Below, in pieces: positions 9,400 to 53,276 of a stretch of 64,000 bases of DNA; the stretch's first letter is position 1, and every line of letters begins with the position of its first letter. The notes beneath the pieces are model-generated. The model did no database searches, was not told where the DNA came from, and was given only the letters and a program-made list of their open reading frames with translations. A program made the translations under genes and the position numbers. The DNA lies in IMG/VR virus record IMGVR_UViG_3300009285_002342, positions 1-64,000 of that record. One strand, given 5' to 3'. Origin of the DNA: a virus.

Positions 9400-9718
9400 T
9401 TAGTCACTAAATTTCATTTATTCCCTTTTTATTATTTATTCAAAAAATGAATCATATTCAATAAATTTCGTTCGTTTAAAAAATGAATCGTATTTAGTAA
9501 ATCTGCACTATCCAAAAAATAAATCATATTCACTAAATTTCATTTATTCAATAAATTCGATTCATTTAATAAATCCGATTTTTTACGGGGTAGGGTAGGG
9601 TGGTAAAAAATTTTCGATCTTCGGATTTTTTTGCCCGCAAAAACGTGCTCGTACTGGCAACTTTTGAAATTTAGATTTAAATCGTACTGTCAACTTTTCG
9701 ATTTTCAAATTCAAAAGG
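9400..9718. repeat. AT-rich iteron-like array, G-rich tract and paired 15 bp motifs (module copy 2)
   Basis: Same architecture and orientation as 2411-2812. Confidence 0.85.
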
Positions 9719-9733
9719 TGGGTAGATTTTTCC

Positions 9734-9815
9734 GCTTCGCCTAATCGTTTTTAAGACGTTTTTATTTTTACCCGTAGGGTATCTATATCGTTTAACCTAA
9801 GCGATTCTACGAAGC
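9734..9815 (+). repeat. Dispersed TIR element, copy A
   Basis: GCTTCGCCTAATCGTTTTTAAG...ACCCGTAGGGT...CGTTTAACCTAAGCGATTCTACGAAGC. Confidence 0.85.
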
Positions 9816-9977: not shown

Positions 9978-10352
9978 TCATTTCTCGTTTCTTTTCCGTT
10001 TTTCCTTAGCGGTTTTGACCCTATGGTGAGAAAAACAGAGGGATTGTAAATTGTTTTCGTCCCAAAAATCCCCACCATCTTTTACTTCTATAATATGGTC
10101 CACGGTTTCCGCAGCTTCCGTAACATCGAATTTTAAACATTCTACGCAAAGTGGCTCTTTGCACAAATGTCTGTTTCTTAACCGTTGCCATCTCGCAGTA
10201 TGATATCTAGGATCGCTACGATAATCGGAATCCCTCGTTTCGTATTTCGGTTTAACTGCCTTTTCGTAAAGATTATGTTTTTTACAATACTTCCCTTGAA
10301 CTATGATTTCCGGACAAGACGGATAGGCACACGCTTTACCTAAAGTTGGCAT
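9978..10352 (-). CDS. HNH endonuclease, terminase-associated (HK97 gp74-like)
   Basis: CAYPSC..YCKKH, RWQRLR, PLCVEC, VDHI..KDGGDFWDENNLQSLCFSHH. Confidence 0.9.
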   Translation of the reverse strand: MPTLGKACAYPSCPEIIVQGKYCKKHNLYEKAVKPKYETRDSDYRSDPRYHTARWQRLRNRHLCKEPLCVECLKFDVTEAAETVDHIIEVKDGGDFWDENNLQSLCFSHHRVKTAKEKRKRNEK

Positions 10353-17493: not shown

Positions 17494-17501
17494 ATTTTTC
17501 C

Positions 17502-17588
17502 CCTAATCGTTTTTAAGGCGTTTTTATTTTTACCCGTAGGGTATTTTATAGGCTAAGGGATAGATCGTTTAACCTAAGCGATTCTACG
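17502..17588 (+). repeat. Dispersed TIR element, copy B
   Basis: Same conserved blocks as copy A; supplies the TAG stop of the upstream - strand gene. Confidence 0.85.
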
Positions 17589-31526: not shown

Positions 31527-31619
31527 GCTTCGCCTAATCGTTTTTAAGACGTTTTTATTTTTACCCGTAGGGTATATCGGAAAAATCTAGATCGTTTAAC
31601 CTAGACGATTCTACGAAGC
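31527..31619 (+). repeat. Dispersed TIR element, copy C
   Basis: GCTTCG...CGAAGC ends and conserved internal blocks. Confidence 0.85.
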
Positions 31620-32872: not shown

Positions 32873-33118
32873 TTAATTCCATTCATAAGACTTTTCCAAA
32901 TTCGATAATCCTTCGTCGAATTCAGTTTCTAACCGTTTCAATTCTCCATCTAAACGGTCTAGTTCTGTTTGTCCTTTTTCTTTTGAATCGCAACCATACT
33001 GTTTAAGTTGCAAAAAAAGATTTTCTTTCGTCCCTTCTAGGCGGTCCTTTTTACTTTTAGCAGCATCTATAACCGCTTTAATCTTTGTCAATTTAGCTAC
33101 CTTTTCTTCGTTAGTCAT
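32873..33118 (-). CDS. Short coiled-coil protein, possible SbcC middle segment
   Basis: Heptad-rich; lies between SbcD and SbcC-C. Confidence 0.6.
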   Translation of the reverse strand: MTNEEKVAKLTKIKAVIDAAKSKKDRLEGTKENLFLQLKQYGCDSKEKGQTELDRLDGELKRLETEFDEGLSNLEKSYEWN

Positions 33119-33330
33119 AATCCCATATTCTCCGTATGTTTTTTAATTTCATTTATAGAAGGAATTTTATATTTCCCTTCTTCAGTATTCTTAGCACCTA
33201 TAGCGGACATTATACAAAAGGTTCTAGTTCTTCCGTTAAATGCCTGCATTTCATCTAATGCTTCCCACATTATGTTTACTAAATTCCGCTTAGGTAACTT
33301 TAATAGTAGTTCGTAAAGATTATCGTTCAT
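33115..33330 (-). CDS. Hypothetical protein
   Basis: Coupled. Confidence 0.6.
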   Translation of the reverse strand: MNDNLYELLLKLPKRNLVNIMWEALDEMQAFNGRTRTFCIMSAIGAKNTEEGKYKIPSINEIKKHTENMGL

Positions 33331-33535
33331 TTCTTTTCTTCCCTAAGCGTTTAAAAATTTCTAAAGCTAATTTTTCAGCTTCTTCAAGAGAAAGGTTAAT
33401 ATAAGTAGAGGTATCCCCCCCGGGATGAAGCGAAAGAGTTTTCGATATAGAAATATAACTAGACGAAACATAATGCTTGAATGGAGTATTATGTTTCCCT
33501 GCTCTATGTTTAGTTACCTTAATCCCAGGTTTCAT
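33320..33535 (-). CDS. Hypothetical protein
   Basis: ATGA-coupled to SbcD. Confidence 0.55.
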   Translation of the reverse strand: MKPGIKVTKHRAGKHNTPFKHYVSSSYISISKTLSLHPGGDTSTYINLSLEEAEKLALEIFKRLGKKRNER

Positions 33536-34479
33536 TTTTTCGCCTTCTCTATCCATTCAAAAAGTTTATCAGATATTTCTTTCGCTGTTTTATTCCCCGC
33601 TAAATATTTTTTACAATTACTTTCGTAGTCTAAACCTAATTCAATTTCGCCTTTTAATTTCTCAATATAGGCAAAAACCGCTTCCCGTCTTTCTTCTTTA
33701 ACTTCGGCTTCTTCGATATGCGTAGTATCTATTACACCTTCTTCTATCGGAAGATAAACAGGCTCTACCCGATTACTTTCGGCATAATACAGATAAACCC
33801 TTGGTTTGTGTTCAATTTGATCCGATTTAAGTCTTAGGATACTACCTGGATTTACCAGTAGTCTTCCGTCATACGCTACCGTAAATGGTTTATGATTATC
33901 GCCGGAAAGAATAACATCGTATTGCGAAAATTTTTCTAATAACGCTTCAGCAGAAACCCCCTTCTCTGATTCCCATCCCGCACCTTCGCCTTCTAAAACA
34001 AGTTGATGAGTCATAGCGATATTCCTACTCCCCAAGACTGCTTCGATTGGTTCGGAAATAGGTACGCCGTAAGAAAAAGGAAAAACAGAAATTCCGTTAA
34101 AATTGTACACTTTCGTAAAAGGATTAATACGAATAGCCCCAGCTTCGTGAAGTACACCGATACCGCAATTAGACCATTCCGCAACTATATGGTTTTGTAG
34201 ATCATGTTGCCCAGGAATTGCTACGATATCGGTTCCGTTTACCCTCCGAATGAATTCCGCTAAAAGCCAATTAAGCCATTGCGCTTTATCCCCTACGTCG
34301 CCAGAAATTAAAACAGGGATTTTACCGTATTTATTAGACAGGTTGATAATAAAATCCACCTTCCGCCACATCGTCGCTACAAAATCATCAGTACGACAAA
34401 GCGGGACGGCAGACCTTATATGCCAATCTGAACTAAAGATTAAGGCTGGTCTTTCTATGTTGCCTCTTGTACGTTTCAT
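33532..34479 (-). CDS. SbcD/Mre11-like metallophosphoesterase nuclease
   Basis: SDWH, GDVGD, PGQHD, GDNH and NPGS motifs. Confidence 0.9.
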   Translation of the reverse strand: MKRTRGNIERPALIFSSDWHIRSAVPLCRTDDFVATMWRKVDFIINLSNKYGKIPVLISGDVGDKAQWLNWLLAEFIRRVNGTDIVAIPGQHDLQNHIVAEWSNCGIGVLHEAGAIRINPFTKVYNFNGISVFPFSYGVPISEPIEAVLGSRNIAMTHQLVLEGEGAGWESEKGVSAEALLEKFSQYDVILSGDNHKPFTVAYDGRLLVNPGSILRLKSDQIEHKPRVYLYYAESNRVEPVYLPIEEGVIDTTHIEEAEVKEERREAVFAYIEKLKGEIELGLDYESNCKKYLAGNKTAKEISDKLFEWIEKAKK

Positions 34480-34796
34480 AGATTCTCGGCTTTTTCTAAA
34501 GCGATTTTAACGTATTTTGCCCGTTCCGTTAGAATTTCCAACTGTCTTTTCTTCCGAAAAATAAAAGATAGTATCGCTTCTTCCTTCGTCTTACAAGCAA
34601 ACTGATTTTTTGCATTATCTCTTACTATCCGATATTTTCCAGATATATCTATTTTGGTTCCTTTCGGAGTTTTCTTGATTATCGGATATTCCCTTAGTTC
34701 GACTTTTAAGGTAGGCGGATTGGGCGGATTTTCCCCATAGGAATCTTCCGAACCATACAAAATATCTTCGTATCGATACAAAAATTCTTTTTTCAT
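34476..34796 (-). CDS. Hypothetical phage protein
   Basis: KKTPKG; KEEAILSF..RK motif. Confidence 0.7.
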   Translation of the reverse strand: MKKEFLYRYEDILYGSEDSYGENPPNPPTLKVELREYPIIKKTPKGTKIDISGKYRIVRDNAKNQFACKTKEEAILSFIFRKKRQLEILTERAKYVKIALEKAENL

Positions 34797-34962
34797 ATCT
34801 TTTCTCCTGCTAAAATTTTAATTCCTAAGACTTCGGTAGGTGTCATTCCACATTTTAAAAACGCTCTTCCTGTTTCTCCGCGTCGAATAAAACCTTCCGC
34901 CCATTGAATTTCAAAATCCGTCTCGGGTTCAATTAGCAAACCATCTTCTAAAATTTTTATTC

Positions 34963-35490
34963 TCATATTCTCCTCTTCGCTGTTATCGTTCGTAGATTAA
35001 TACAAATAGTTTCGACAATATCTACCGGAATAGAATATTGTCGAACGTCTATCCCGAATTCTTTAGCTTGGTCAAACCAGAATTTGTCCCTTTCGGGATT
35101 TTCGGATTCATAAGCATATTCGTAAACGATTTCGATTATACCGGCAGATTTAATCCGCTTTAAACACGGATAACACGGAAACAACGTACAATATATCGTA
35201 GCGCCGATAGTGTTTTTCCCGGCGTAATCTATAGCATTCGCCTCTGCATGTACCGCCGGGCAATAGTTATGCTTTTCCGATTCGGGCAATTCTAAATTCC
35301 TTCGAAAACAGTATTTATCGCCTTTATCGGTACATTGCGGAAAACCTGCTACCGTGCCGTTATAGCCAACGCCAACTATCCGTTTGTTTTTAACAATTAA
35401 AGCTCCATTAGGCCGACTGTTGCACCCACTTCTCATAGCGGCCGTTTTTACCAATGCCATAAAATATGAATCCCATGATAATCTGCTCAT
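34963..35490 (-). CDS. dCMP deaminase
   Basis: WDSYFM, RSGC, GYNG, HAEANAI and PCYPC motifs. Confidence 0.93.
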   Translation of the reverse strand: MSRLSWDSYFMALVKTAAMRSGCNSRPNGALIVKNKRIVGVGYNGTVAGFPQCTDKGDKYCFRRNLELPESEKHNYCPAVHAEANAIDYAGKNTIGATIYCTLFPCYPCLKRIKSAGIIEIVYEYAYESENPERDKFWFDQAKEFGIDVRQYSIPVDIVETICINLRTITAKRRI

Positions 35491-36029
35491 ATATGCGCCC
35501 ATGCTTTCTTTCTTATCACCGAATGTATATTTTGGACGGATACATTAAATTTTTTAGACAATTCCCTCATAGATACATTTTTCTTATACAAATCCCTAAT
35601 ATTTAAAACATCTTCTTCTGATAATTTAGAATGGGCATTTGCGATCCCTCTTGAATTTGCCAACCCGACCCTATGGGCATGTCTTGTATTTTCTAAAGCT
35701 GTCATCCATTCTAAATTATGAATATTGTTGTTTAACTTATTCCCGTCTTTATGGTTGCACTGATGTTTAGGGGACGGTCTTTTAGAACAAAAACATTCTA
35801 GTACTAAATGATGAACTCTAACTATTTGATGTTCGCCTACTTCGTTACATAAAGTAACAGAATAATAATTATTAATAAATTGGAATTTTAAAATCCTTCC
35901 TTTTTGTATTCTGTTTTTACCGTTTTTATCTTTTACAAATCTTGTTTTAGATTTTACTCTGCCGAAATTAGAAACAAAATAACCGCAATAATTTTCTATT
36001 GATCTCCAAATTTCCTTATCGTTTCCCAT
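35487..36029 (-). CDS. NUMOD4-HNH homing endonuclease with C-terminal HTH
   Basis: EIWRSI..Y.VSNFGRVKS; VHHLV; NHKDGNKLNN...NLEW...EN. Confidence 0.93.
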   Translation of the reverse strand: MGNDKEIWRSIENYCGYFVSNFGRVKSKTRFVKDKNGKNRIQKGRILKFQFINNYYSVTLCNEVGEHQIVRVHHLVLECFCSKRPSPKHQCNHKDGNKLNNNIHNLEWMTALENTRHAHRVGLANSRGIANAHSKLSEEDVLNIRDLYKKNVSMRELSKKFNVSVQNIHSVIRKKAWAHI

Positions 36030-36034
36030 AAAAA

Positions 36035-36166
36035 TTATCCCTTAGTAGTTCCAATGATCCGTTTGTTTTTAACAATTAAAGACCCGTTAGGACGACTATT
36101 ACAGCCGCTTCTCATAACCGCTAGTTTCGTTAGGGACATAAAATATGAATCCCAATCAATTCTCAT
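36035..36166 (-). pseudogene. Truncated N-terminal copy of dCMP deaminase (43 aa)
   Basis: MRIDWDSYFMSLTKLAVMRSGCNSRPNGSLIVKNKRIIGT, nearly identical to the full gene's N-terminus, then stop. Confidence 0.9.
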
Positions 36167-36310
36167 ATTCTTCCTCTCTTAATATCTCCCCATTCTATTG
36201 AAAAAGTCCAAAACAAAAGATCGATCTCGATAGAATTTCTCCAATTCCAATTTACTGTAACCCCTACAGAAATACATTGCCTATTTGTAAATCTTCTAAT
36301 TCTCATATTT

Positions 36311-37087
36311 TTAATCCTCAATATGAAGTATCGCTTTTAGCGGAAGTATCTGATGATCGTAGCAGTGAAGCCCTTGCGAAGCGAAAGTAATAGGACCGGG
36401 CGAAATTCCTAATTCTTCCGCGATATATTCGTTAAGCAAAGTCATTCCACCTATGTTTTCACCAAATGCACCGTATAAGTCCCAACTCCGGAAGACTACC
36501 CCTAAGATAAGTTGATTGTCTTTTATCTTTAGATCAATACCTTGTAAGCACGGCGTAGTTCTTCGTTCGGTTTCGTTCGTAAAATGAATATCGTAATTGA
36601 AACAAGATTCAGGATTTCCAACTTTAATATAACAATGGTTATTTCCGAATCCTTTTTCCTTGAAGTGCCTAATACACCACTCAAGTTGCGATTCCCAAAA
36701 AATTTCTACGCTAGTTATTGAATAACTAAGCGACGAAGGTTTTCTTATAAATCCTCTTTTTGCCCAATTATCCATATGTCCGTTAATCCATTGAGAATAA
36801 CGGTATTCTTCGTTCCGATTTAAGTTAGGGTCCATCAAATAATTCGCAAAATATTCCGAAATGGCTTCATCCGTAGTTACCGGTGGAACACCTTCCGGAA
36901 AAATAGGCGCTAAAGGACGGACGTGCGGATACTGAATAACCCCGGCAGCGAACATAAATTCTAAACGATTAGATCCGGCATGGCTTCCTGTATCTACCGG
37001 AGTTTTAATTCCGTCACGCCAAAGATTTGACAAAAGTGTAAAATAAGCATCCCCTATCGTCGTCGCTTCTATTAAGCAAGGCCGCAT
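36311..37087 (-). CDS. thyA: Thymidylate synthase
   Basis: PCLQ catalytic Cys; FRSWDLY...EN with the dUMP-specifying Asn; LHCY. Confidence 0.85.
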   Translation of the reverse strand: MRPCLIEATTIGDAYFTLLSNLWRDGIKTPVDTGSHAGSNRLEFMFAAGVIQYPHVRPLAPIFPEGVPPVTTDEAISEYFANYLMDPNLNRNEEYRYSQWINGHMDNWAKRGFIRKPSSLSYSITSVEIFWESQLEWCIRHFKEKGFGNNHCYIKVGNPESCFNYDIHFTNETERRTTPCLQGIDLKIKDNQLILGVVFRSWDLYGAFGENIGGMTLLNEYIAEELGISPGPITFASQGLHCYDHQILPLKAILHIED

Positions 37088-37386
37088 AGATCGTTTCCTT
37101 TCTTACTTTCTTCAAAATCTTTTTTAAAGTTGCTAACTACAAATTTATTTATCGCTTCTTGCATCTTATTCAAGCAAGAAGAGCAGATTTGAAAATGCGT
37201 ACCGGGAATTTTAATTGCCGTAGGAACAAAATCATCACAAAAATGACAAGGATATTCCATACTAAAATCGTTAGGTTCTGTACGATGATTACGAAAAATT
37301 GTAAATCCTTCATTTGAACCGACATTTTCAGCACCCATTACTATTTTCCCCATCCACTTCCCATCATAAAAATTTTTATCTTTCAT
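37072..37386 (-). CDS. Hypothetical Zn-binding protein
   Basis: CHFC and CSSC. Confidence 0.6.
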   Translation of the reverse strand: MKDKNFYDGKWMGKIVMGAENVGSNEGFTIFRNHRTEPNDFSMEYPCHFCDDFVPTAIKIPGTHFQICSSCLNKMQEAINKFVVSNFKKDFEESKKGNDLCGLA

Positions 37387-37387
37387 A

Positions 37388-37660
37388 CTAACTCCTTCCT
37401 AATACGTAATTTAACATCCTCTCTTTTTCTCTTTCGTCTTTAAGGATAATCTCATATCCTAAATCTTCAAAATATTTTTTTACAATCTCTAAATCTGACC
37501 ATTGAAAAAACGAAGTATAAAGAAAACCTTTCGCTCCTTCTATAGATTTTAACAAAGGTTCTACGATAACCGGCATATCTTCTTTAGATCCTACAGGAAG
37601 TTGAACACAAAGATCAAATGGTTTATAAAGACCTCTAATAAAATTAACAGTCTTTTTCAT
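37388..37660 (-). CDS. Hypothetical protein
   Basis: Coupled. Confidence 0.6.
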   Translation of the reverse strand: MKKTVNFIRGLYKPFDLCVQLPVGSKEDMPVIVEPLLKSIEGAKGFLYTSFFQWSDLEIVKKYFEDLGYEIILKDEREKERMLNYVLGRS

Positions 37661-37914
37661 ATTAACCTATCTATAGCGAAAGTTTTTTCGTGTCTTGATT
37701 CTTTTATTTCTTTATCAAGTTGAATTGAATAATCGGTCATTTTCTTTTCTTTCCAAGGATATTGCGATTTTGAATAAGCATAGGCTTTACGTCCATAAAC
37801 ATATCTAGCTGGATAATGAACAAACCCACATTTAGGGCAACCATCTTCAAAGGTTTTCTCATTTTCCTTAAAAATCCATTCACAAGAAGCGCAAACTCGC
37901 AATTTTGCTTTCAT
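37657..37914 (-). CDS. Zinc-ribbon protein
   Basis: CASC and CPKC. Confidence 0.65.
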   Translation of the reverse strand: MKAKLRVCASCEWIFKENEKTFEDGCPKCGFVHYPARYVYGRKAYAYSKSQYPWKEKKMTDYSIQLDKEIKESRHEKTFAIDRLI

Positions 37915-37915
37915 T

Positions 37916-39136
37916 CTACCATGTTACCTCCTTTCCACAAAGCGGACAATAATCACCCATCAATTCATCAAATTTTTTTTGCCCAGTTTTATATTCATTA
38001 TCTGCTTTTGCCATTTCGACGGAAGTTTCATATATTCTTTTTAGAACTTCGGAAATTCCGCTACGAAGTTTTTTCAATTCGGACATTTCGCTTAGTCGTA
38101 CTGCCAACTTTTCAACTTCAGAAGCATATTTCGTAACCACTTCGGTTTTTTGTAATTCAACTTCCGTAGCGTCTATCCCGTCTAAAATTTTCGCTACGGA
38201 ATTCCACCGTTCATTCCCCTTAGCGATTAACGTAGACAGCGTAGTTAAACGATCCGCTTCCGAAGCATACCTAACTATGGATTCCGCTTCCGATAGCTCG
38301 GAAAGGCAAATGCTAACGTTTTTTAATAGTTTGTCTAAATTGTCCGCCTTATTGACGATTTCATCAGCTTCCGTGTTTAGTTTAAATAACCTTTCGGTTT
38401 CGTCGGAATATTTAACAATTTCGGAAGTTTTATTTAACTCATATTCCGTTTCTTCTATTTTTGCTAAAATATCAAAAATCGCAGTTCGTTTTTTTATTCC
38501 TTCTACCTTCTCGTTTTCAATATTTTCTAACTTCGCAATATCTTTTTCTGCATCCTTTAACCAATCATATTCCTTTATTTTTTCTTCGTTCTCTTTTAAC
38601 TCTATTTCGAAACGATTCAGTTCCGCTTTTTCATTTCGAATTTCGGAAGCAGCTATAGAAAGAACTTCGTCAATAATGTCCAAGTGCGCTACGCGATTAA
38701 GATAACGGGCTACTTCGCCGGAATTGTTAGAAATTAGAAAAGCGGGATCTAATTGTTGCTGAAAATTAACTTCTGAAAGATTTAATAGGTCCAAAACTTT
38801 TTGCGGTGGCGAGCCGTTACCGAAATTCCTTAGACGATTCTTTTCCGTGTCTTCTTGTATATAATAATAATCGTCAGTTTTGGTTTTCTTTCCGTAAATA
38901 CGTTTTCTTCCGATTAATAAACCTTCTTTGGTTGCGATTTCTACTTGCGGATTTCCGCCCCACCAGGATCGGTATTCTTCCCCGGTAGGGCGGTTATTGA
39001 AAAGCCATCCTAAAGCCTTAAAGACTGCAGACTTCCCTTGCCCGGTAGCGCCGATTAAAGCGTTCACACCTTCGGATAAAGGAATCACGGTTTCTTTATG
39101 GCCTAGGAAGTTGTATATACAAAATTCAGTAAACAT
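37916..39136 (-). CDS. SbcC/Rad50-like ATPase, N-terminal half
   Basis: NFLGH, Walker A GATGQGKS, Q-loop QQLD, long coiled coil, terminal Zn-hook CPLC. Confidence 0.9.
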   Translation of the reverse strand: MFTEFCIYNFLGHKETVIPLSEGVNALIGATGQGKSAVFKALGWLFNNRPTGEEYRSWWGGNPQVEIATKEGLLIGRKRIYGKKTKTDDYYYIQEDTEKNRLRNFGNGSPPQKVLDLLNLSEVNFQQQLDPAFLISNNSGEVARYLNRVAHLDIIDEVLSIAASEIRNEKAELNRFEIELKENEEKIKEYDWLKDAEKDIAKLENIENEKVEGIKKRTAIFDILAKIEETEYELNKTSEIVKYSDETERLFKLNTEADEIVNKADNLDKLLKNVSICLSELSEAESIVRYASEADRLTTLSTLIAKGNERWNSVAKILDGIDATEVELQKTEVVTKYASEVEKLAVRLSEMSELKKLRSGISEVLKRIYETSVEMAKADNEYKTGQKKFDELMGDYCPLCGKEVTW

Positions 39137-48819: not shown

Positions 48820-49023
48820 TTATAATTTTGGTTCCATAATCCCTTCTTCATGCATTTTTTCGAAAAACTTAAAAAGATTTAACAAAAATTTATCATTATC
48901 GTTAACTTTTATATCCCATTGATTAAACAGAAAATCCAACAAATTTGATTCTGGATTTCCAAATTCACCAGATTCCATATAATCAAAACAACTTCCGTAT
49001 TTTTCTTCATATTTAAAACACAT
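48820..49023 (-). CDS. Hypothetical protein
   Basis: TAATG-coupled to DnaE. Confidence 0.55.
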   Translation of the reverse strand: MCFKYEEKYGSCFDYMESGEFGNPESNLLDFLFNQWDIKVNDNDKFLLNLFKFFEKMHEEGIMEPKL

Positions 49024-52000
49024 TATTTCGCATTCTCCTTAAATATTTTAGCGAAAATCGCTATCCCCGTTCGAAACTTTTCTAAATTCTCATTCCGATT
49101 CCGCAAGACCCAAGAAGGATGCCCGCACCAGACTACGTGAGCATTTACCTTTTCTACAAATTCAACTTCCCCTATTAATTTCGTTATTCCTTTTTCCCTG
49201 CCGGTTAGAGCGTAAAGGGCTACGCCGCCGGTAGCTAAAATCAACTTACAATTCATACTACGGATAAACGGAATTACCCATTTATTGAAACAGATATCGG
49301 TTTCTTCGCGGGAAGGAGTTCGGGTTTTCGACGGAAAGCACATAGCGCAATTAGCAACATGCACCTGTCTTCTCGTTATTCCGTGTATCGCTAATTCATC
49401 CCAAAGTAGATTACCGGAATCTCCTACATAACCGACGCCTTGTTCATTTTCGGTAGAATTGTGAACAAAAATACCGTTAACTGCAAAATTATGATATTTT
49501 TCAACTTCCATATCGTAAACATCTTCAACTCCTATACATTCAACAGCAACAATCTTATGATTATCGTCTATAGGTATTTCTTCATCCGGAAATCTTTTTT
49601 TAAACAATTCCTTTATTCTTTCATCCGTAATATTGAAAAAGGAACTATTTTTTCTTCCCATTAAATAATTCCAATAATAATTAGGATCTGTTTGAAATTT
49701 TTTCTTTAAAGTTTTGGCCATTTTCTTTTTACTTTTAGAAATTTGCTCAAGCCTTTCTGCATATATCTTTGGGTCTTTAAGCACTTGGCTCATTTTGCGA
49801 CTCAGCTTTCTTCTGTAATTTAAAGAAGTCATAATTTTAGAATGTTTTTCTCTATGTTTTTCATTAAACATAGGATTATTCAAGATTATATGATATTTTG
49901 CGTGATCGGCTACAGAAAGTGACTCTAAATTGTCAAAACTATCGTTATATCTATTCTCATCTATATGATGACAATCTTCTTTATCTTCTAATTTTCTCCC
50001 TAATTTTTGTTCTAATAAAAATCGAGATTCTATAAACATTTCAGTATTAAATGCGCCAATATCATTATATCGATAACTATGGCGATGAAAAGGTTGCAAA
50101 CTATGCCCAATAGTTAACCCGTCCTTTATAGACAAATAATCAACAGTTTCTTGTTTTCCTTTAAACGGATCTTTTTTATTAATAGAATATCTTAATAGAA
50201 ATGGATGATTTTCTGTAACGTTTATCGAACTGGTTTTTCTGATTCTTTCTTTTCCATTAGCAAAATACCATTCATAAGTAACTTTATATACTTTTTTCCT
50301 ACCTGTTTTCCAAACCCTATTGACTTTTCCTAAAACTAATTTTTTGTTTTCTGTATCAAGCGAATAAACATAAAAATCTTTTTGCCCAACTAAATCTTTA
50401 ATAGGAATCCCCGTTAAAGATTTGGATTTATCTCTAAACGCTGTATCTATCAAAGAATCCCCGGTAATACACCCCGGTGCCTCCGCAAGGATCAAAGCGT
50501 TATAGTTTCCGATAGACGGAAGTACAACTCTTGTCGCTTGTTTTCTTAAACCGCAAAGTTCACATTCTTTCGCTTCCGGAACTATTCCGATTTTCTTTAT
50601 GACCGGCAATTTTATTGATTTTCGAGAAACAGAAAATTGAAAATACTTGTTCCAATCCTCCGGTCCTGATTCCGGAATCGTATCGAACGCTTTTATTTCT
50701 TCCATTAACTGCTCTATCTTAGTGGTTCCTACGGCTTGCCTTTTAAAGAAACCTTTCGCTAATCTTTTTGGTTTCATTAATGCACATTTAGCGGCGGCAG
50801 TTTCCCCTATTCCTTTGATTTCAGAAAATGGCGCATAAAGATCGTTTCCTTTTATTTTCCATTTCTTCGTATCGGATATTCCTATCTTAGGCGATACAAT
50901 ACGGAAGCCTTTCTTTTCCGCTTCCGATATCGTCGCGTCTTTATCTTCGCCATAGGTTAAAGTAGCGCAAAGAAATTCTTTCGGATGATTACATTTAAGA
51001 TAGGCGGTTTGATATGCTAATAAGCCGTAACTCGTAGCGTGCGCTGCATTAAATCCGTACATAGCCCATCCCAAAAGATCTTGCCAAAACTTTTCGGCCT
51101 GTCTTTCATTTAAAGTTTTTAACTTCTTACAGCCTTCAAAAAAGGAAATTCTATATGGTTCAAATTCTTTCGGATCGCGCTTCTTGCCGATAACCTTTAA
51201 AACATTATAACCATCGGTAGCAGAAAAACCCGCTAAGTCAATCATAGACCGCATCATTTGTTCCTGATAGGCCATTACGCCATAGGTTGATTTTGTAATT
51301 TCTTCGTACTTCGGATGTAGCGGAATCCATTCCTCGCCATGTTTTCGCTTAACATATAAATCGGCCATTCCCGATTCTAACGGCCCGGGCCTAGCTAAAG
51401 CGCCGATAGCTACAATATCGTTAAATTCATCGGGTTTCATTTCTTTACATAATTTTTTACAGGCATAACCAGACATTTGAAATATTCCGGCGGTATCGCC
51501 TTCCGAAAGCATTTTATAAACCTTCGGATCGTCTAACGGAATATTCTCAATATCCAAATTATCTATTATCTTAACCGCTTCGTCTATAACGACTACGGTA
51601 CTTAGTTTTAAAACGTCAATTTTTACCAGTCCCGCGTGTTCATCGCAATCCACCATATCCCAGTTTATTACAATATTATCGCTACGGCGAACTAAATTGC
51701 CCCTCGTCCCGTCCCTTAGATCTTCTCCGGAAATTATCAATCCTGCTGGATGTCTTCCACTCGAACGGCATTGTCCTTCTAATTCGCAAGCTAAACGGAG
51801 TTGATCTGGATATCGTACTGCAAACTTTCGCCCCTCTCTTGTACTCTCTGCTGCCGCTTTTATAAGTCCGGTAGCATGTCCTTTCCCCTCTATGTTTTTA
51901 GCAAATTCGTCTATATCATTTTCATCTAACTCAAAGACACGGCCTACGTCTCTAACAGAAGAACGACTTTTCATCCTCATAAACGTACTAATTCCTACGA

Positions 52001-53276
52001 CATTATATTCCCCATATTCTTCTACAAGATGTTGTTGTATTTTATCGGTTTGAGTATTATCAAAATCAAGATCAATATCCGGAAGTGATTTTCTATCTTC
52101 GGAAATAAAACGCTCAAATAAAAGATTATATTTTATCGGGTCTATCACTCTTGTTATTCCGGCGAGCATCGAAGTAAGTGAACCTGCAACCGATCCTCTT
52201 CCAGGCCCAACAGGTATCTTCGCTTCCTTACAGTATTGAATCAATTCATAGATAATAAGAAAATAACGAGAAAAGTTTTTATGCTGAATAACTTGCATTT
52301 CCCTCTTGTATCTTTCTCTATATCCTTCGGGCCATCTTTTTCCGAAAATCTCTTCGCCGCCTTTTTCGCATATTTCAGCTAAAATATCTTCGGCGGTTAA
52401 ATCCGGATTCGCCTTTTCGTATCGGGTAAGCGGAAGGGAAGGAATCATTTTAGGAACTCTAAAATCCCAACACTTCTCCGCTATTTCTACTGTTTTCGTT
52501 AAGGCTTCGTAATACTGTTTTCGATTTAAGATATTTTGTGCTTTAAATTCAGAGACCATTTCGTCTGCGGTTCTTAGATGTAAACCTTTAAAACCGAATT
52601 TCCACCTATCCGGATCTTTCCATTTCGCTTGTCTTTGCACAGCTAAAAGAACTTCTTGAGCTTCCCATTGATTTTCGTACACGTAATGGCAGTCGTTCGT
52701 CGCTATAAGCGGAATATTGTATTTTTCTGAAAGTTGTAGACAAAGGTTATTTATCTTAACTTGTGAGGCAATTTGATGTGGCATTACCTCTAAGTATATT
52801 TCTGTTTTTTCGATTAGATCTTTAAAAAGTTCTTCGCCATTAGGCAGATTAAGAAACGAAGACGAACATCCCGTAAGTAAAATTAAACCGGAAAGATCGG
52901 CGCTTCTTAGCAAGGGAAAATCTATTCTCGGTCTACGGTTAAAACCTTCTAAGTTCGCTACGGTTAGCATCCGATTAAGTTCTTGCCAGCCTTGTAGATT
53001 TTTTACTAAAACAGTAATATGTCCCCTAGATTCTTTTCCAGTAGACTTCATATCGGGTACACAATATAGCTCAGTCCCGAGAATTGGCTTTATTCCTACT
53101 TTATCGAAAGCTTTCTGCCATTTTATATGTGTATCTATATTGGAATGATCAGTGATAGCACAGGCTTTAAACCCTAATTCTACATTTCTTTTTGCGTATT
53201 GTTCCGGTTTGCCGATCCCGTCAAGGAGGCTGTATTCCCCGTGCACGTGCAAATGTATAAAATCGGAATTATTCAT
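49023..53276 (-). CDS. dnaE: DNA polymerase III alpha fused to a C-terminal family-4 uracil-DNA glycosylase domain, intein-containing
   Basis: PHP HLHVH..YSLLDG, GPGRGS, FERF, PDIDLD, YGFNAAHA; UDG CELCGL, AEAPG, HPS. Confidence 0.93.
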   Translation of the reverse strand: MNNSDFIHLHVHGEYSLLDGIGKPEQYAKRNVELGFKACAITDHSNIDTHIKWQKAFDKVGIKPILGTELYCVPDMKSTGKESRGHITVLVKNLQGWQELNRMLTVANLEGFNRRPRIDFPLLRSADLSGLILLTGCSSSFLNLPNGEELFKDLIEKTEIYLEVMPHQIASQVKINNLCLQLSEKYNIPLIATNDCHYVYENQWEAQEVLLAVQRQAKWKDPDRWKFGFKGLHLRTADEMVSEFKAQNILNRKQYYEALTKTVEIAEKCWDFRVPKMIPSLPLTRYEKANPDLTAEDILAEICEKGGEEIFGKRWPEGYRERYKREMQVIQHKNFSRYFLIIYELIQYCKEAKIPVGPGRGSVAGSLTSMLAGITRVIDPIKYNLLFERFISEDRKSLPDIDLDFDNTQTDKIQQHLVEEYGEYNVVGISTFMRMKSRSSVRDVGRVFELDENDIDEFAKNIEGKGHATGLIKAAAESTREGRKFAVRYPDQLRLACELEGQCRSSGRHPAGLIISGEDLRDGTRGNLVRRSDNIVINWDMVDCDEHAGLVKIDVLKLSTVVVIDEAVKIIDNLDIENIPLDDPKVYKMLSEGDTAGIFQMSGYACKKLCKEMKPDEFNDIVAIGALARPGPLESGMADLYVKRKHGEEWIPLHPKYEEITKSTYGVMAYQEQMMRSMIDLAGFSATDGYNVLKVIGKKRDPKEFEPYRISFFEGCKKLKTLNERQAEKFWQDLLGWAMYGFNAAHATSYGLLAYQTAYLKCNHPKEFLCATLTYGEDKDATISEAEKKGFRIVSPKIGISDTKKWKIKGNDLYAPFSEIKGIGETAAAKCALMKPKRLAKGFFKRQAVGTTKIEQLMEEIKAFDTIPESGPEDWNKYFQFSVSRKSIKLPVIKKIGIVPEAKECELCGLRKQATRVVLPSIGNYNALILAEAPGCITGDSLIDTAFRDKSKSLTGIPIKDLVGQKDFYVYSLDTENKKLVLGKVNRVWKTGRKKVYKVTYEWYFANGKERIRKTSSINVTENHPFLLRYSINKKDPFKGKQETVDYLSIKDGLTIGHSLQPFHRHSYRYNDIGAFNTEMFIESRFLLEQKLGRKLEDKEDCHHIDENRYNDSFDNLESLSVADHAKYHIILNNPMFNEKHREKHSKIMTSLNYRRKLSRKMSQVLKDPKIYAERLEQISKSKKKMAKTLKKKFQTDPNYYWNYLMGRKNSSFFNITDERIKELFKKRFPDEEIPIDDNHKIVAVECIGVEDVYDMEVEKYHNFAVNGIFVHNSTENEQGVGYVGDSGNLLWDELAIHGITRRQVHVANCAMCFPSKTRTPSREETDICFNKWVIPFIRSMNCKLILATGGVALYALTGREKGITKLIGEVEFVEKVNAHVVWCGHPSWVLRNRNENLEKFRTGIAIFAKIFKENAK
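49458..50471 (-). mobile_element. Intein (338 aa) with HNH endonuclease
   Basis: C1 CITGDSLI, block B VTENHPF, HHIDEN..ND..DNL, block F VYDMEV, terminal HN followed by S+1. Confidence 0.92.

Follow-up and report, generated by a model that had tools for sequence, protein, structure and literature searches.

A free-standing HNH gene between a truncated and a complete 5' end of a phage dCMP deaminase gene: a putative invasion with a replacement gene start

Introduction

How can a conserved phage gene remain whole when a nuclease gene appears to have landed within its reading frame? The question is raised by a locus of an uncultured phage represented by a single metagenome contig (IMG/VR record IMGVR_UViG_3300009285_002342, 115 kb), of which the first 64 kb, hereafter the window, were studied. 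In this locus, a 43-codon ORF resembling the start of a dCMP deaminase gene lies before a NUMOD4-HNH gene, which is followed in turn by a complete dCMP deaminase gene (Table 1). A first-pass annotation had read this arrangement as an intron-less homing element that inserts at a conserved site and brings with it a replacement, recoded N-terminus. From comparisons of the locus, its relatives and the relatives of the HNH gene, we consider it quite probable that a free-standing I-HmuI-like HNH gene invaded the deaminase ORF just 5' of its GYNG codons, welded to a foreign 5' end of that gene, and that the short ORF is the stub left behind.

Table 1. Parts of the deaminase locus, in order of transcription
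Feature	Positions	Strand	Remarks
Thymidylate-synthase-like (TS-like) gene, 258 aa	36311..37087	-	Pfam Thymidylat_synt 5.5e-5, 22.9 bits, below curated cut-off; upstream synteny anchor
144-nt spacer, TS-like gene to stub	36167..36310	-	Contains the stub's ribosome-binding site GAGAGGAAG
Stub ORF, 43 codons + TAA	36035..36166	-	First 40 codons of the putative resident deaminase, then foreign T-K-G
Stub part homologous to the deaminase family, codons 5-40	36047..36154	-	Relic copy of direct repeat D4
Left junction and HNH leader, ACTAAGGGATAATTTTT	36030..36046	-	AAGGGA ribosome-binding site 8 nt before the HNH ATG; stub stop codon included
5-nt spacer TTTTT between stub and HNH gene	36034-36030	-	
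NUMOD4-HNH gene, 180 aa, GC 0.31	35487..36029	-	Pfam NUMOD4 + HNH_3 + weak C-terminal HTH
Putative replacement deaminase 5' end, codons 1-41	35368..35490	-	Joined to HNH gene; ATGA start/stop overlap
Complete dCMP deaminase, 175 aa	34963..35490	-	Pfam PF00383 1.4e-19

Results

All parts of the locus lie on the minus strand. Homology of the stub to the deaminase family ends at Thr40 (ACT, 36049-36047). Thr is the residue before GYNG in most of the family, and the GYNG codons, which would be expected next, are located at 35367-35356 in the full deaminase copy. Past codon 40, the stub reads T-K-G-stop through the HNH gene's own ribosome-binding site, and alignment with family members revealed no homology to deaminases at the left junction. 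None of the catalytic motifs of dCMP deaminase was found in the stub. The break exactly before GYNG, the HNH start 5 nt past the stub's stop (ATG at 36029) and the overlap of the HNH stop with the start of the complete deaminase (ATGA at 35490) were thus borne out as the first-pass annotation had described them, and so was its description of the first ~40 deaminase codons as a diverged copy of the stub. An alternative ATG at 35502 would lengthen the deaminase to 179 aa, with a 16-nt overlap with the HNH gene. In the full copy, HAE (35250-35242) and PCYPC (35178-35164) are intact, and end-to-end alignment with 18 homologues showed every invariant residue to be kept. The spacer upstream of the stub contained no terminator-like site and no promoter signal above chance.

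The HNH ORF stands out by a dip in GC content (0.31 vs 0.40-0.41 in its neighbours). In Pfam it matched NUMOD4 (1.4e-10) and HNH_3 (1.1e-8), together with a C-terminal HTH_38 match (1.4e-4) that lies below the cut-off. Its sole PDB relative by sequence was I-HmuI (1U3E, E 9.6e-6), the strand-specific nicking homing endonuclease encoded by the DNA polymerase intron of Bacillus phage SPO1. An AlphaFold model of the HNH protein (pLDDT 85) gave the same entry as its only significant fold match (E 5.6e-7, 186 columns). The motif NHKDGNK..NN..NLEW aligns to I-HmuI and is invariant in 10 relatives of the HNH protein; the match extends over the full length, and in both proteins an N-terminal beta domain precedes the HNH core, with a helix-turn-helix at the C-terminus. 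Judged by sequence and predicted fold, the protein is I-HmuI-like. In contrast to I-HmuI, which is intron-encoded and a proven nickase, the protein described here is free-standing, ~24% identical and a putative endonuclease. Its gene has its own ribosome-binding site, ATG and stop, and is out of frame with the stub.

The record being a metagenome contig, an assembly chimera of two strains might be suspected, and the inteins that relatives carry in the deaminase and the TS-like gene could point to a hidden intron or intein that requires splicing. Against a chimera, a join at the sole long word shared by the two copies (25 nt) would connect the stub with the deaminase body and not with the HNH leader, the arrangement of starts, stops and ribosome-binding sites is tidy, and the same layout occurs in independent assemblies, as described below. 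Against splicing, no Rfam match to a group I intron was obtained at E<=1 within 33000-39000, Pfam detected no Hint or intein domain in the HNH ORF, and this ORF does not share the frame of the stub. We hold both of these explanations to be exceedingly improbable. With the HNH gene in an ORF of its own and a complete deaminase ORF downstream, no splicing is needed, which supports the first-pass view of an intron-less element with the gene restored without splicing. Among the relatives, L130, L131 and L137 likewise gave no Rfam match to a group I intron.

Stub codons 5-38 and deaminase codons 6-39 align without gaps, with 80 of 102 nt and 28 of 34 aa identical, and the homology of the stub extends over deaminase codons 6-41 at 78% nt identity. 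The same pair was found by an independent repeat search (D4, 35372-35475 vs 36051-36154, 79%). Such a likeness is evidently not due to chance, because an all-against-all ORF search of the 115-kb genome found the stub/deaminase pair to be the sole coding duplicate of its kind, and tblastn of stub against full copy gave E = 1.6e-19. Self-similarities at 2.4 kb and 9.4 kb were considered as further stubs and ruled out, being non-coding 18-nt tandem arrays and promoter-like repeats.

A direct repeat flanking the HNH gene is also what would be expected if the deaminase 5' end had been duplicated in place, perhaps under stimulation by the nuclease, and the upstream copy had then decayed; segmental amplification driven by an endonuclease is reported for T-even SegB (PMC13096335). 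The differences between the two copies argue against decay. They amount to 13.7 synonymous differences per 22.2 sites and 8.3 nonsynonymous differences per 79.8 sites (pS 0.62, pN 0.10, pN/pS ~0.17, dN/dS ~0.09; Fisher p = 8e-7), with neither indels nor stops over 36 codons, and a model with one copy drifting neutrally, under which many more amino-acid replacements would have accumulated, was rejected (p = 4e-12). Differences that are mostly synonymous argue that both copies diverged inside working genes; judged by this codon pattern, the stub and the full 5' end would be working alleles from different genomes, and duplication followed by decay in place is scarcely credible. Of the first-pass claim of a replacement, recoded N-terminus, the replacement agrees well with this allele-type divergence, whereas recoding in the sense of design was not upheld, the differences being those of ordinary allelic divergence.

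The stub and the full copy are mutual nearest relatives (78% nt identity, vs 52-70% to others), and share the derived residues Asn in RPNG, Leu in LIV and Gly before Thr/Val. Because the two copies remain each other's closest relatives, the donor was probably a moderately related phage. Distances to the sampled relatives are about equal (58-65% nt identity for the stub, 52-70% for the full copy), with no close relative in the collections searched. We also attempted to assign the resident copy by similarity, which was rejected, as the relatives do not discriminate the stub from the full copy. A 25-nt identical run before the break is only marginally unusual (P = 0.02-0.04), and shared ancestry, gene conversion or a conserved recognition site might account for it; 5 of the 12 nt adjoining the break differ between the copies. 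Before GYNG, where Thr is usual, the full copy has Val. This substitution is a weak candidate for a self-immunity change, as Val is present in 12 of 111 homologues (11%).

We next turned to the relatives of the locus. No cultured phage was similar to the region at the DNA level, and a protein search of 5.8 billion sequences gave ~50% identity for the nearest deaminase and 46-50% for the nearest HNH protein. Relatives of the TS-like protein (40-61% identical) were found on 50+ contigs, and 55 TS-anchored loci were examined. In eight HNH-free lineages (L082, L083, L088, L089, L090, L097, L129 and L130), all of them distant relatives whose TS-like proteins are 45-61% identical to the one here, a single intact deaminase lies 8 to about 800 nt downstream of the TS-like gene, with neither HNH gene nor stub; the stub, which the first-pass annotation had tied to the insertion, is thus seen in 0 of the 8. 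Because these lineages have the deaminase there after the TS-like gene, the stub occupies the normal place of the deaminase start.

These same loci bear on another history, in which two tandem deaminase paralogues were present and insertion of the HNH gene deleted most of the first. Such a pair would account for two diverged 5' ends that were both shaped by purifying selection. However, no relative has two deaminase genes: each of the 55 TS-anchored loci contains one or none, and each of the best 80 deaminase loci shows a single N-terminal match. We regard this history as highly improbable. A second stub-HNH-deaminase arrangement was not found in the best 80 IMG/VR deaminase loci or in the 55 TS-anchored loci.

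Several relatives carry insertions of other kinds in the TS-like/deaminase pair. In L131 (IMGVR_UViG_3300001580_000014, L131:3998-7362), a true intein (PF14890, 1e-16) that encloses an HNH-like segment interrupts the deaminase ahead of the CxxxHxE codons, and the TS-like gene of the same locus has an in-frame insert of ~1 kb with a LAGLIDADG_3 domain. Insertions in this pair were also noted in L130/L132 and L137/L138; in L137 and L138 the TS-like gene is interrupted by 2.2 kb. Selfish elements have targeted this gene pair repeatedly, and we refer to its neighbourhood as a hot spot because the same pair carries inteins in relatives. The TS-like gene with a small zinc-finger protein upstream is a conserved pairing in many uncultured phages, and the TS-like protein, rather than being an ordinary thymidylate synthase, may be a divergent enzyme of pyrimidine modification.

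We then asked whether relatives of the HNH gene lie in similar surroundings. For the best 80 IMG/VR loci with HNH relatives, the 900 nt upstream were compared with the 1300 nt downstream by same-orientation protein similarity. Plus-strand similarity between the flanks was detected in 11 of the 80 loci, as against 1 of 238 mismatched upstream/downstream controls. Nine of the 11 proved to be duplicated host-gene ends; of the other two, L185 has a tandem HNH gene and L164 a near-identical DNA repeat. L158, in which the HNH gene is antisense to the host gene, was a tenth case. The layout of relic, HNH gene and replacement end is thus present in 10 of 80 loci and in eight different host genes, three times at the 5' end and seven times at the 3' end.

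The three 5'-type loci have the order seen at the deaminase, with a relic 5' end, the HNH gene and a complete gene starting at the HNH stop. Their host genes encode a SNF2/ResIII-type helicase (L206:228-2160), with the stub breaking off immediately ahead of the Walker A codons, a ParB_N protein (L171:1800-3302) and a RecA-dependent nuclease (L215:2413-3306). In the 3'-type loci, a complete gene with a new end is followed by the HNH gene and a relic 3' end; these are L155 and L189 (phage metallopeptidase), L161 (DNA methylase), L186 (PD-(D/E)XK nuclease), L157, L174 and L158. The two copies are strongly diverged in all ten loci (49-70% nt identity). Between L155 (L155:974-1773) and L189, the new metallopeptidase 3' end and the HNH gene are 84-96% identical, whereas the flanks, including the relic, are 73-80% identical; this block reads as the signature of a co-transfer more recent than the divergence of the genomes.

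The layout was seen in none of 10 sampled GenBank (cultured) phages with HNH relatives. Clostridium phage vB_CpeP_PMQ04 (L231, MZ995505.1 27210-29277) has a large terminase annotated as two CDS around a NUMOD4-HNH gene. As an example of the stub layout it was rejected, being a split or intron-containing terminase.

These surveys also bear on whether the locus is a one-off scar. The donor HNH gene would then have been intergenic, upstream of a deaminase, and would have cut a recipient in which a single illegitimate join at microhomology left the stub, with no onward movement of the unit. A possible 3-nt ACT/ACT microhomology at the junction, the single deaminase instance in the two collections of loci, and the 70 of 80 HNH-relative loci without flanking repeats would all fit such an accident. 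It does not readily explain a layout found in eight host genes with breaks adjoining conserved motifs, nor the L155/L189 pair, in which HNH gene and replacement end appear to have travelled together. We therefore find an isolated scar unlikely as the whole explanation. It is likely, however, that such a scar is the origin of a propagating cassette, so that scar and cassette would be stages of one process.

Discussion

Our results are best explained by invasion of the deaminase ORF by an HNH gene joined to a foreign gene start. The HNH gene would have arrived with a foreign deaminase 5' end comprising at least codons 1-41, and possibly with the whole gene. With the new 5' end starting on the HNH stop codon, the deaminase would be made as one polypeptide, with no intron or intein, and the resident promoter-proximal 40 codons would have been left as an enzymatically dead stub. 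We propose that deaminase alleles lacking the HNH gene are nicked or cut by the enzyme around codons 38-44, that the downstream broken end may then invade a donor deaminase, and that synthesis may copy the donor codons 1-41 together with the HNH gene. At the initial invasion, the far end would have been joined illegitimately to the broken resident 5' end, possibly with the help of the ACT/ACT microhomology. Thereafter, the stub would serve as the left homology arm at the cut, and the unit could home whatever gene lies upstream. As to expression, the stub probably keeps its native ribosome-binding site, and its translation may deliver ribosomes to the HNH start 5 nt on; the HNH stop may likewise be coupled to the deaminase start through the ATGA overlap. 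A reference on nick-initiated gene conversion is among those listed in PMC2988022.

Events in which an endonuclease gene brings a replacement gene end are already known from fungal mitochondria. The mORF hybrids of Allomyces macrogynus atp6 and of Glomus sp. atp6, atp9, cox2 and nad3 have duplicated gene ends that are 64-81% identical at the nucleotide level, and biochemical work showed that mobility is driven by the Allomyces endonuclease (PMC3630166). In Endoconidiophora, too, endonuclease ORFs are accompanied by partial C-terminal duplications (PMC6279837). As in the mORF hybrids, the deaminase locus has an endonuclease ORF within a conserved gene, accompanied by a diverged and putatively foreign end (64-81% nt there, 78% here), the presumed native end stays as an untranslated or useless relic, and there is no intron or intein. 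In the fungal cases, however, it is the 3' end that is replaced, by LAGLIDADG or GIY-YIG elements that are often fused in frame, in a mitochondrial genome, whereas here the 5' end with its start codon appears to be replaced, by an HNH enzyme in a tailed phage. The 3' type of the fungal hybrids is also that of 7 of the 10 related phage loci, and both orientations occur in phages.

Among phage elements, the T4-type free-standing homing endonucleases SegB, SegF, SegG and MobE are known for intronless homing (PMC2988022, PMC2790892, PMC2330249). Like these, the HNH gene is a stand-alone ORF wedged into a polycistronic unit beside a conserved nucleotide-metabolism gene, is sporadic in relatives, and is presumed to cut HNH-free alleles with co-conversion of the flanks. 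In contrast, the classical T4-type cases are intergenic or gene-splitting (mobE in Aeh1 nrdA, seg in gene 43), and none is described with a duplicated, truncated gene start (PMC2988022). The MobA element of T4-like phages, a cassette of mobA and the gene 60 bypass (bioRxiv 10.1101/2022.08.31.505936), is similar in that an HNH gene lies within an ORF and brings its own diverged version (HomR, 67-81% nt) of the host segment that surrounds its cleavage site. MobA, however, deletes a host segment and leaves no stub; the topoisomerase is divided between two polypeptides and a translational bypass of 50 nt is required, whereas at the deaminase locus the gene is in one piece and no recoding is needed. 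A full-text literature search found no phage report of a stub, an endonuclease and a restarted gene, which does not prove absence; what appears to be new is the phage, 5'-end, HNH form.

The locus is a natural footprint, to the codon, of what is most likely a homing-endonuclease cut in a conserved nucleotide-metabolism gene, and it illustrates how a gene may survive invasion without splicing. Should the frequency in our sample (10 of 80) hold for phages at large, selfish nucleases would be replacing stretches of core genes with foreign alleles in a way that has been overlooked. The resulting mosaicism of core genes would matter for phage phylogeny and for gene calling, in which stubs are annotated as small hypothetical proteins. 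The breakpoints may serve as ready predictions of target sites for new sequence-specific nickases, and in the TS-like/deaminase neighbourhood three invasion strategies can be compared on one target. More tentatively, we suggest that homing endonucleases might have, in the carriage of a spare gene end, a third general means of settling in phage coding sequence, in addition to introns and inteins. The relic would then be a homology arm that makes the unit portable between gene orders, used by about one eighth of the NUMOD4-HNH clade at both 5' and 3' ends, with breaks next to conserved motifs (GYNG here, Walker A in L206). This wider idea is a possibility to which we give distinctly less credence than to the invasion of the deaminase gene itself.

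Elsewhere in the window, a second, unrelated HNH gene (9978-10352, minus strand; PF01844, 124 aa) adjoins non-coding repeats, and a duplicated host-gene end was not found around it. In a 1417-aa ORF (49023-53276, minus strand), DNA polymerase III alpha (PHP, NTPase and finger domains) is combined with a C-terminal domain of the uracil-DNA-glycosylase superfamily. Residues about 957-1273 of this ORF are an intein that weakly matches HNH_3; judging from these matches, the ORF would encode a DnaE-intein-UDG fusion, which is unusual. Tandem units of 18 nt form two arrays (2409-2718 and 9402-9585) 6.9 kb apart, and a 47-nt element is present in three copies at 96-100% identity (9736-9782, 17498-17544 and 31529-31575), near other promoter-like repeats. 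The tandem arrays and the 47-nt repeats are probably regulatory or origin-like sequences.
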